Shown here in pieces: positions 37,280-43,524 of a stretch of 64,000 bases of DNA. The notes under the pieces were generated by a model. It was given only the letters and a program-made list of their open reading frames with translations, was not told where the DNA came from and ran no database searches. Made by a program: the position numbers and the translations under genes. The DNA is taken from NCBI RefSeq assembly GCF_038025025.1, contig NW_027117339.1, positions 1,364,001 to 1,428,000 on the forward strand, given 5' to 3'. Each line of letters opens with the position of its first letter. The first letter of the stretch is position 1. This stretch comes from Phyllosticta citribraziliensis (lineage: Eukaryota).

Positions 37280-38804
37280 TCAAAAGTAGTTACTGGAGCC
37301 AGCATAGTCTGACCGCGTGCCGGGGAAGGCTCCGATAGGGTCGTCGTTGTTGTTGGTGTCATTGTCGTCGTCGACGCCGCTGTCGTCTTCGTCGCCGGCA
37401 AAGGCCGAGTCACTCGGATCAGGTGGCGCGCGCATGCGCGTGACGATGGCCTCGTCGAGGCAAGGCAGCTTGAAAGGCTTGGGCGTGTGGTATTCGCGGC
37501 CGGACGGCATGGTGGCCAGCAGAGGCTCGAACGGGGGAATCGTGTCCATTCCGACCTTTTTCGACATCATTGTCAGCAAAACAAGGCTCATTTGCGGATT
37601 GGCAGATTTCTCTCAGGAGAGGCTGGGGTCCCCGCACCGTGTCGTTCATCCGGACCCATTTCTTCTCCAGCATCTCCACGACCCTGCCCTCTTCGAGCCT
37701 CCCCGCGTCGGTGCCCCAGTCGACCCCCTTTTCGATCTTTTTGTCCTCGCGCTTCTCCGCCCGGTCTTTTTTGAGTTTTGCTGTGAAGCTCTTTGCCTTC
37801 TTTTCATCGTCTCCCGTTGCCCCCAGAAACCCCAGCTCCTTCCTAGCCCCTCTGAGCCATGCGATGCCCTCGCCCGTCTTTGCCGACAGCTCTGCATCGA
37901 TCCCGAAGAACCGACATGCCTTGCCCCGTGCCGTCCTTTTGAGATCATCGAGATAGCGCGCCAACGCCTCGTCCACCTTGCTCGCTCCGCCCAGCGTCGC
38001 CTGTCCGCGAGCAGCATGCTCTGCCGCCGCCAGGCACAGCCGCGCAAACAAATGCGCCCGCACCTTGGGAATGTCGGGCGCCTTGAACATCCAGTCTTTG
38101 GACTGCTTGTTGCGGTCCTCGGCCACCACGGCGGGATACGGGTCGTCCTTGGAGACGGCGATGAGCGTGGCCTCTGCGAGAGACAGCTCGGCCAGCGCGT
38201 TGAGCACCGGCGCGCTAATGTCACCGACGGCGGCCGGACTGGTCCACTGCCCCGATCGCTGGACCAGATAGGCGTGAATCGAGTGCGCATCCAGGAACGA
38301 GCGCATTGCTGACGAAATGGCTCCAGTGCGCTGTTCTGGCGTGGGAAGGGTGGCAGAGCTCTGTAGCGAGTGCAGCTGCGCGCGCGCAAGAAGCGAGTAG
38401 ACGTACGCCAGGGTAGAGAGAACAAAGAGGATTTCGGCCTCCAGGCTCTGGAGCTTGACGCGGGGAGGGTCGCGTCCGGGCAGCGTTGCCGTGAGCGTTG
38501 CTCGCCAGTCGACTTGGAGCTCTTTGACAAGGACAACATCCACCTCTTCACTGCCAATGCTCTTGCCGCTGAGCCCTGCGTCTAACACGGAGAGGTACGG
38601 AATGTACTCGTTCAGCGCCGACAGCACCGTGGGCAGATTGGCCGCTTGGGACGACGGCGGAAGCCGCTTGTGCCTCTTGAGAACGTCGCGCAGCACTCCT
38701 CGACATGTCGTTGCGGCGAGCGGGAGCGATGGATGGGTGTTGCTGTTGAAAAAGTCGGCAAATGAGAGAGCGCCCGTGGTGGGAAGCTGGAAGGGAAAAG
38801 GCAT
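37280..38804 (-). CDS. palC: pH-response regulator PalC (Bro1-domain protein)
   Basis: MPFPFQLPTT N-terminus, LAEATLIAVSKDDPYPA, DWMFKAPDIPKVRAHLFARLCLAAAEHA, GKACRFFGIDAE and KWVRMNDT, then an intron, then ..MPSGREYH..NYF*. Confidence 0.9.
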
Positions 38805-39342: not shown

Positions 39343-39765
39343 TTAGTTTCGAGGGTCGCCAGGGTACTTGTAGCCCTCGGGAGGCAGGTGCTTCATCTCC
39401 CACAAGTATCCCTTGATCTTGCAGTGCTTCATGAGCTCAAAGTATCTCTCTGGAGCTGCGTTAGCTTGCGCAATCCAAAGCATTGGCCCGGGTGTAGCCA
39501 TTGGGTCTTGCTGCTCGTCCAACCCTCCTCACAACTGACCTCTCAAGTGTCCGCAATTCTGCAAGTGGTTGACGCCCTCCCTGCGATAGCATTTGCCCAT
39601 CTCCTCGCGCACAAGTCGTGCCATCATGAGCTTGACCCATTGTTCACGGATAATGGCATCTTGCGCCTTCTTGATGCCCTCGTCGTCATCGAAGCTGACG
39701 CCCTGGAAACTGGGCGGGACCGTGGGCTTCCTCTTGAGATACGCCTCAGATTCGGGGATGGGCAT
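39343..39765 (-). CDS. NADH:ubiquinone oxidoreductase 12-kDa accessory subunit (NDUFB10/PDSW family)
   Basis: IIREQWVKLMMARLVREEMGKCYRREGVNHLQNCGHLR, intron ~39539-39450, then ERYFELMK..KIKGY..PRN*. Confidence 0.92.
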
Positions 39766-41082: not shown

Positions 41083-42473
41083 TCACAGCCTCGACTTCAC
41101 CTTCCTGGTCAGGTTCCTACAAAGCATGGTCAGCACACGTCACGACAGCCTGGGGGTTTCTCAATCGACTTACTGAATACCACTCACCTCTCGCGAGCGA
41201 AGGACTTGGCCGGCTCCGGCTTGTTGTCGAGAATCTTTTCAATCTCCTCCTGAACTTCGGGGGTGAGCTTGTCTAGAAGCTTCAAAGCACCAACATTCTC
41301 GATGATCTGCTGAGGCTTGGATGCTCCAAGAATGACGGTGCTAACGTTCTTGTTCTTGGCGCACCACGCGAGAGCCAGCTGGCTGACCGAACCACCGAGC
41401 CTATCGGCGACGGCGGTGAGCTTCCTGACCTTTTCAATCTTGGCCTGGCCCTCGGGCGACTTGAGCTCCTTGACGGTGTTTTCAAAGAAAGCCTTGTTCT
41501 GGGCAAAGCGAGAGTCCTCGGGGACACCATCGTTGTACTTGCCGGTCAAGAGACCCGAGGCGAGAGGACTCCAGATGGTGGTTCCGTACTGGAACTGCTC
41601 GAAAACGGGCGCGTACTCGACCTCGAAGCGCTCGCGGTGGAAGGCGTTGTATTGCGGCTGCTCGACGACTGGGGCGATCAGGTTGTACTTTTCGGCAATC
41701 AAAGTCGCCTCAGTGATCTGAGTGGCGCTCCATTCCGAGGTACCCCAGTAGTAAGCCAGGTTCAGGTTGCGGATGACTTGGGTGAAGCCCTCGACAATCT
41801 CCTTCATGGGAGTGCTAACAAGACGTCAGTGGCGAAGGTCAAAGTGGGTCTGAACAACGTACCCAACATCAGGACGGTGGGCAAAGACAATGTCGACGTA
41901 AGGCGTCTGGAGACGCTCCAAGCAGCTCTTGAGACCTTCAACGACGTGCTTGCGAGATAGACCACGGGTGTTCGGCTCCTTCCTGCCGGTGCCGAAGAAG
42001 ACCTTGCACAAAAGTTAGAGCAGGGTTTGGGGAGGATGCGGGACAGAATATACATACCTTGGTGGACAGGACGTACTCGTCCCTCGGCCAGTCGAGCTCC
42101 TTGAAAGCGTTGCCCATCTCAATCTCACACTGGCCGTTGGAGTAGACCTCTGCGGTATCAAAAAAGTTGATGCCGTGGTCCCAAGCGGTTTGCATGCAGT
42201 CCTTGACGATGTTGCCCTTCTGGGTGCCACCGTAGGTGACTGCGAGCTGTCAGCATCCCAATTGATTGCAGGCAGGCGTGGCGACTTACGCCATCCTCCA
42301 AGGCTCAGAACAGAGACCTTGAGACCAGTAGGTCCCAGGTACTTGAAGGTCATGTCCTTGGGGTCGAAAGCGGAGCGGACTGCCATTGTTGCTGCTGTTC
42401 TGGATAGAGTGGGATTGAAGAGTGAGGGGATATGGGAGGAAAGAAGGAAAGGGCGCTGCAGAAGACGGGACAT
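41083..42473 (-). CDS. Aldo-keto reductase, voltage-gated K+ channel beta-subunit-like (AKR6); alternative N- and C-termini predicted
   Basis: [27 protein letters not shown] (catalytic D/Y), [39 protein letters not shown] and [13 protein letters not shown]. The unspliced stop is at 41184; the spliced PTS1 isoform ends at 41083. Confidence 0.93.
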
Positions 42474-43524
42474 GAGTGGGAAAAAGAGCGTACCCGTAGC
42501 GTGTTAGGGCGCGGAGGCCACAGCAGCCGTGACGTGCTCGTCAAGCCGGTTGACGGAGGTAAAGCTATCTCCGACTTGTATTGCCAGAGACCCCGCACCC
42601 TTTGCCTCGCCTTACTCTAGTGGCAATCCCTCGGTTCTCGTGGTGCCAGTTACCATCATGTCGTCGTTGTCTCTCTTCAACAAAACATCCCCCCGAGATC
42701 CCAGGCTCTGTCGCCATGGCATTGTGCATGCTCTCGCTGTACTCAGGTCAGGAGAGGGGAGCTTATTGGAGCTTGGGCCACTCAGGTGGTCCGCCCTCGC
42801 TCTTCGGCCCGTTATCGAACAAGGGACCTTGAAGTCCAGGGCAGGTCCCTCCCGCGTCTGCTGCAACTACCTGCAACACCATCACCTTGATGTCTCGTGC
42901 TAATGTTAGTGACGTATCCTGTTCACCATGAACTCGAGCTTGAGCTCGACAGCGCGAAAGATTACACAACCTTGACAGGCCCGTATTTTCTGCCGGAAGC
43001 ATCTGTCCCGTTTCTTTCCCTTCTCGTATTCCACATGGCCGCAAAATGCACTTTTCCGTCTCCATCGGGCTTCTCCGAAACGAAGATAAAACCAGCCAAC
43101 TCAAGTTTAAAGCTGTAAGTAGACTTGCCGTGTTAAATCGAAGGTAGTAGCATACCACTAGTAAAGGGAGCATAGTAATACATATTCCTCTAGTATCTAC
43201 ATTGTTGTAAAGGAGTACCAGTCAACCGCCATGGACCTTGCCCTCAGGTTTATCACGAACATTAATGGTGAACGCAGGTGTGGTGAAGACTTCAATTTTT
43301 TAAAGATTTATTGTTTATCAACGCGCATGGAAGACGAAATGAAACCTCAGGTATCCATTCACTTTCTGTCGGCAACACCACAGTACGTGTCGAAAGAAAT
43401 GAGACTCCCTGGCAATATGAGTGTACCTAGGGAGCATTCATTTACTGCTGTAGCTGCGCTTAAGGAGAATTCATGTACTCCTACGTCGAGCTTGGGAAGG
43501 AAGCAGTCGTTCATTGCTGTTGGC

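Follow-up and report, generated by a model that had tools for sequence, protein, structure and literature searches.

The locus studied here raises the question of whether a single aldo-keto reductase gene delivers its product to mitochondria, cytosol, and peroxisomes. Within the window (the whole stretch of DNA analysed, 64,000 nucleotides) the gene lies on the minus strand and is spliced. The coding part of exon 1 in the long form (42290..42473), exon 2 (42058..42239), and exon 3 (41863..42002) are delimited by RNA contigs and by comparison with database records; the coding part of exon 4 (41184..41814), which includes the TGA of the main form (41186-41184), is supported by RNA contigs and by a match to PF00248 (E 8e-25). 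The joints of introns 1 (42240..42289) and 2 (42003..42057) are seen in four of four RNA runs, and the joint of intron 3 (41815..41862) in three of the four; the acceptor of intron 2 is AAG, and the next YAG-type site follows 36 nt later.

The best solved relatives of the protein are Kv-beta subunits (PDB 3lut, 2a79) and AKR6D1 (8hw0), which match over the whole domain with E about 1e-96. The reductase has the catalytic residues Asp60, Tyr65, and Lys93; in the alignment, its His135 faces the Asn that Kv-beta2 has as the fourth catalytic residue. The product is probably a Kv-beta-like (AKR6-like) NADPH-dependent carbonyl reductase, activity and substrate both being predictions from sequence, and its database name, 'potassium channel beta subunit', appears to rest on likeness. 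Fungi are not known to have Shaker-type channels. Read from ATG 42386, the 349-residue protein matches record P0229, labelled Phyllosticta citribraziliensis, at every residue and shows 94-95% identity to records of P. citricarpa, P. paracitricarpa, and P. capitalensis.

Four public RNA runs (X1-X4) of the 24 listed were examined, all as assembled contigs; these are RNA, since spliced joints are present in them, and they reveal no strand, transcription start, or abundance, so that their counts and depths speak for presence only. At the 3' end they contain an alternative intron (41117..41187) with two donors: donor 41173, the major one, keeps the stop and is seen in four of four runs, while donor 41187, the minor one, removes it and is seen in one (X2), with a contig depth of 2216 vs 13208 for the donor 41173 form. 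Both splice forms are thus directly observed, and the 3' splice switch proposed in the sequence-only reading exists. The last exon of the minor form (41083..41116), defined by RNA contigs and record P0228, encodes a 10-residue tail ending in SRL (PTS1-type); P0228 is identical to the short form carrying this tail. PTS1-type ends occur in 6 of the 119 top orthologue records. Among smut fungi, Ustilago orthologues (P0050, P0341, P0345, P0347, P0352) are annotated as pairs of 353 and 369 residues; the longer records inspected (P0050, P0341) end in SKL, which suggests that the 3' switch reaches basidiomycetes, and none of these records shows an N-terminal extension.

At the 5' end, two in-frame ATGs and their contexts are read directly from the DNA. 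The upstream ATG opens a 29-codon extension (42387..42473), a candidate mitochondrial presequence in the light of its sequence, relatives, and RNA contigs, and has the context CTC ATG T (C at -3); the main start codon (42384..42386) has the context ACA ATG G, with A at -3 and G at +4. The distance between them is 87 nt, with no intervening ATG in any frame, and 11 codons upstream of the upstream ATG the frame is closed by an in-frame TAA (42504..42506). At -3, all 15 control start codons of this genome have A, vs C at ATG 42473, whose context is thus locally unusual. The extension contains 3 Arg, no Lys, no Asp/Glu, 8 Ser/Thr, and 3 Pro. The earlier observations that a weak ATG stands in frame with a strong one and that the two enclose 29 acid-free residues hold, the former on the minus strand and the latter by residue count. 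Much of this composition follows from a pyrimidine-rich tract (42400..42490; 0.77-0.87 C+T), within which lie the upstream ATG and the greater part of the extension. Farther upstream, a 15-codon open reading frame (42612..42659), whose two ATGs stand at 42659 and 42656 (A at -3 for the latter), is present only in the longest leaders, lies inside the X1 contig, and may damp translation of these leaders. A bacterial promoter scan, a method unsuited to a fungus, yielded nothing.

The strongest competing explanation is that the upstream ATG is incidental to a pyrimidine-rich leader, that any long form is untargeted, and that the gene serves only cytosol and peroxisome. We assessed it against the 15 control start codons, which belong to eight CCT subunits, Hsp60, and six genes of the isocitrate/isopropylmalate-dehydrogenase family, the gene labels being presumptive. 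An open in-frame upstream ATG is found in 3 of the 15, and the control leaders read as protein yield similar peptides, with 9.6% Arg and 3.6% Asp+Glu (1246 residues); the leader belonging to the cytosolic chaperonin CCT2 does no worse than the extension, as it contains 3 Arg without any acid and reaches a hydrophobic moment of 0.61 (extension, 0.56). Of open dinucleotide shuffles of the extension's 84 nt, 65% lack Asp/Glu, 10% also have at least three basic residues, and 2% combine absence of acid and at least three basic residues with the observed hydrophobic moment. In four true presequences from the same genome, Arg numbers 4-8 and the moment ranges over 0.49-0.82; the extension, with 3 Arg, 0.56, and more Pro, stands at the weak end relative to them. 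Hence, the Arg/Ser/Leu-rich, acid-free composition, taken in the sequence-only reading as the mark of a matrix-targeting peptide, does not discriminate the extension from ordinary leaders: the upstream ATG alone, or the composition alone, is no more than chance. Generally, Arg/Ser-rich acid-free upstream extensions are what pyrimidine-rich fungal leaders yield by default and are not evidence by themselves.

Motif content within this genome divides. The R-x-[FLY]-[STA] motif, which we take to be the R-3 motif of the mitochondrial processing peptidase, is found in 1 of 15 leader controls and is absent from the extension of this gene, in line with an incidental ATG; the extension matches what we presume to be an R-10-type pattern. 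It opens with a hydrophobic-x-x-hydrophobic-hydrophobic pattern, presumably a Tom20 motif, which is shared by only 2 of 15 controls and speaks against an incidental origin. An ESM Atlas search with the 30-residue extension gave no usable match and is uninformative. Two loci of this genome have features of their own. At the 5' end of the NADP-isocitrate dehydrogenase gene (L107; G000:C8:1662150-1665599, minus), the layout is that of idpA: the first ATG, which has A at -3, is followed by 74 presequence-like residues and then by a second in-frame ATG; the C-terminus of the gene product is EKL, not a clear PTS1. The homoisocitrate-dehydrogenase-like gene (L100; G000:C1:991813-995613, about 970-1040), one of the controls, shows open in-frame ATGs at distances of 22, 60, and 99 codons before the chosen start, and may not be a true negative control, since the 22-codon extension could be a presequence.

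Conservation is more telling. Record P0235 of P. paracitricarpa (388 residues) combines the long form with the PTS1 tail, its extension being identical in 25 of 29 positions; record P0004 of P. capitalensis likewise has the long form with the PTS1 tail, and its extension is identical in 20 of 27 positions with a 2-residue in-frame gap. Judged from these records, ATG and frame are kept in three Phyllosticta species, the gap in one of them being in frame, which argues against an incidental ATG. Beyond the genus, 14 of the 119 top orthologue records, out of 120 listed, are extended (13 by the cut-off and one with 15 residues); annotation under-counts the extension, as long and short records exist side by side for N. 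crassa (orthologue record EAA36333.2, P0248), E. dermatitidis, D. amygdali, and P. capitalensis. A search for longer proteins, supplemented by cluster look-ups, brought the extended records to 40 of 222 (9 records without the anchor being dropped from the count), in a set that is enriched and does not give a frequency. In a later look-up, 12 of 93 records were extended, six of them ascomycete; 10 of the 12 extensions do not resemble presequences (six from Cryptococcus, three Hortaea-like, and one from a lichen), so that spurious extensions exist, as the incidental explanation would have it.

A metagenome scan gave 80 loci, of which 68, about 47-55% identical and bacterial-looking, were set aside, and 5 of the 12 examined were truncated or not from Pezizomycotina. 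An upstream in-frame ATG is present at two (L007, L027) of the seven informative Pezizomycotina DNA loci, with a basic and acid-free extension in both cases, and absent from five. An orthologue lacking the upstream ATG (L011, about 450-580) has 42 open codons before its start, and a non-AUG start is possible there. The extension is thus real in part of the family and patchy: the conservation in orthologues that the sequence-only reading named as a check is seen in Phyllosticta, and presequence-like extensions occur in many other orders, whereas the patchiness, with two of seven DNA loci, fits an incidental ATG.

Family-wide features of the extensions weigh on the other side. We collected 46 ascomycete extensions, each of which precedes a second Met that is retained; they represent 10 order-level groups, to which some records were assigned with the help of a quick tree. 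No Asp/Glu is found in 40 of the 46, and R-x-[FLY]-[STA] is found in 29, vs 9.2 expected in shuffles; weighted by order, the motif is seen in 4.8 of 10, vs 1.9 expected (P about 0.04). For the first 40 extensions with one weight per order, 2.3 Asp/Glu are seen vs 12.6 expected (P about 0.001), the expectation being taken from the leaders of this genome, which may not fit other genomes. Loss of acidic residues and excess of a peptidase-type motif beyond the leader background both argue against an incidental ATG. Of the first 40 extensions, 39 have 22 residues or more, and, to judge by the residue that precedes the second Met, at least 45 of 46 records have a purine at -3, so that the second ATG stays strong. 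The Tom20-like pattern and early Arg are enriched over the 46 records (P 0.01 and 0.04, respectively), and not by order (P 0.45 and 0.42).

A candidate cleavage mark, Arg at -5 from the second Met, was considered separately and rejected. It is found in 22 of 40 extensions and in this gene; with clustering at 90% (18 clusters), the observed conservation was reached in 20 of 20000 shuffles, and with clustering at 85% and 82%, in 9227 and 16556, respectively. By order, the number was 2928 of 20000, and the residue is absent from 12 of the 12 later extensions. Having failed both the correction for kinship and the new data, Arg at -5 is kept as no more than a hint.

Taken together, we regard an incidental ATG as somewhat unlikely, while still the most serious competitor. 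A second alternative accepts the presequence and derives both forms solely from two transcription starts, as in A. nidulans idpA, without leaky scanning. The contigs reach different 5' ends: 42681 in X1, beyond 43000 in X2, 42488 in X4 (15 nt before the upstream ATG), and 42456 in X3, i.e., downstream of the upstream ATG and between both ATGs. The upstream ATG is included unspliced in contigs of three of four runs (X1, X2, and X4); transcripts covering it are therefore observed directly, and the prospect that all transcription starts lie downstream of 42473, which would have told against the sequence-only reading, does not agree with these three runs, contigs being unable to map starts as such. 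Pyrimidine tracts are tied to transcription starts in filamentous fungi, and the tract here lies across the extension. Together with the X3 contig end and the precedent of idpA (PMC3798809), this is consistent with two starts; however, a weak upstream context is needed by leaky scanning and not by two promoters, and, by contrast, the first ATG of the NADP-isocitrate dehydrogenase gene of this genome has A at -3. Exclusive use of two starts is accordingly quite improbable. Removal of the upstream ATG by a leader intron, for which a donor-like GTAAGG (42615), a branch-like CTAAC (42507), and an acceptor-like CAG ending at 42456, exactly at the X3 contig end, are present, is very unlikely indeed, since no joint is seen in four of four runs, the contigs cross either the entire segment (X1 and X2) or the acceptor (X4) without splicing, and the branch-to-acceptor distance would be 52 nt vs 14-17 nt in introns 1, 3, and 4.

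We hence favour, with a probability of roughly 0.6, a main cytosolic form accompanied by two minor ones, a mitochondrial form that arises by leaky scanning and a PTS1 form that arises by splicing. The earlier claim that the long form is mitochondrial is retained as probable on other grounds than composition, which fails as a reason: conservation in Phyllosticta, the extensions in other orders, and the RNA contigs. The gene would then carry an address switch at each end, the two working independently. On messages starting upstream of 42473, a minority of ribosomes would initiate at the weak, probably cap-near ATG, yielding a 378-residue precursor, whose 29-residue presequence would direct it to mitochondria and then be trimmed. 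Leaking past ATG 42473 would be helped by its poor context and perhaps by a short leader (the X4 contig ends 15 nt upstream); cap-near AUGs are described as leaky (PMC7049704). Most ribosomes would scan to the strong ATG 42386 and produce the 349-residue cytosolic form, to which transcription starts inside the pyrimidine tract probably add. Use of the minor 3' donor would swap the stop for the PTS1 tail and send a protein of 359 residues to the peroxisome, whereas both signals together would give a rare form of 388 residues, expected mainly in mitochondria by the precedent described for idpA (PMC3798809).

If this is true, a widespread enzyme labelled as a potassium-channel subunit is a reductase for mitochondria, cytosol, and peroxisomes made from one gene; annotation, which mostly begins with the second Met, overlooks a form; and the substrate is narrowed to something met in all three compartments, possibly reactive carbonyls or a redox shuttle. 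Two neighbouring genes on the minus strand are recorded here in their own right. A BRO1-domain gene (37419-38804), with a match below the family cut-off, may resemble the pH-signalling protein PalC; at 39529-39765, the first exon of a small protein, with no Pfam match, shows a putative likeness to the 12 kDa accessory subunit of respiratory complex I.

Each element of the favoured arrangement has known counterparts. Weak-then-strong in-frame AUG pairs around a predicted presequence are described as common in Cryptococcus and N. crassa; in C. neoformans, a strong second AUG is in frame in 110 of 167 genes, and a presequence is predicted in 41 of these 110 (PMC7049704). The reductase gene likewise has a weak first ATG, a strong second one, and a presequence-like peptide between them, with a spacing of 87 nt vs a median of 69 nt (PMC7049704); unlike those dual-AUG genes as described there, it adds an independent 3' switch predicted to give a peroxisomal form. 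The reductase family is not named in the main text of that paper, and no match was found in its supplement, whose Table S4 gives gene ids only in the first 40 of its 167 rows (PMC7049704); the commonest C. neoformans orthologue record (P0326) starts at the second Met, and this negative carries no weight for the present gene.

The closest counterpart in outcome is A. nidulans idpA, reviewed as a single gene that provides mitochondrial, cytosolic, and peroxisomal NADP-isocitrate dehydrogenase (PMC3798809). The likeness would comprise one gene for three compartments, an optional N-terminal presequence, and a C-terminal PTS1; the difference is that idpA is described as using alternative transcription starts with the PTS1 on both forms (PMC3798809), whereas here splicing makes the PTS1 itself optional and the first ATG seems to be leaky. 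Cryptic PTS1 signals made by splicing are reviewed for U. maydis GAPDH, A. nidulans PGK, and Y. lipolytica malate dehydrogenase, where likewise a minor splice form swaps the stop for a PTS1 tail; unlike the present gene, these are described there as serving cytosol and peroxisome only (PMC3798809). With S. cerevisiae Ptc5, which has a presequence and a PTS1 and is described as reaching peroxisomes through mitochondria (PMC9549241), the 388-residue form would share both signals, being here predicted and rare, as the product of two minor events.

A far bolder extrapolation, which we consider a long shot, is that in many filamentous ascomycetes this channel-less Kv-beta relative has two independent switches giving four forms, that the doubly addressed form, far from being waste, travels by way of both mitochondria and peroxisomes, or connects them, like Ptc5, and that the whole acts as a regulated carbonyl- or NADPH-handling shuttle across three compartments, pointing to the ancestral channel-free role of Kv-beta. 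A search by title and abstract found no study in which this fungal enzyme had been localised; subscription papers, supplementary lists, or proteomes may hold one. Each of the two switches, as well as the three-compartment outcome, is already known from other genes; as the mechanisms are known, the gain lies not in a new principle but in this enzyme as a new, testable case, with an orthologue in the model fungus N. crassa.
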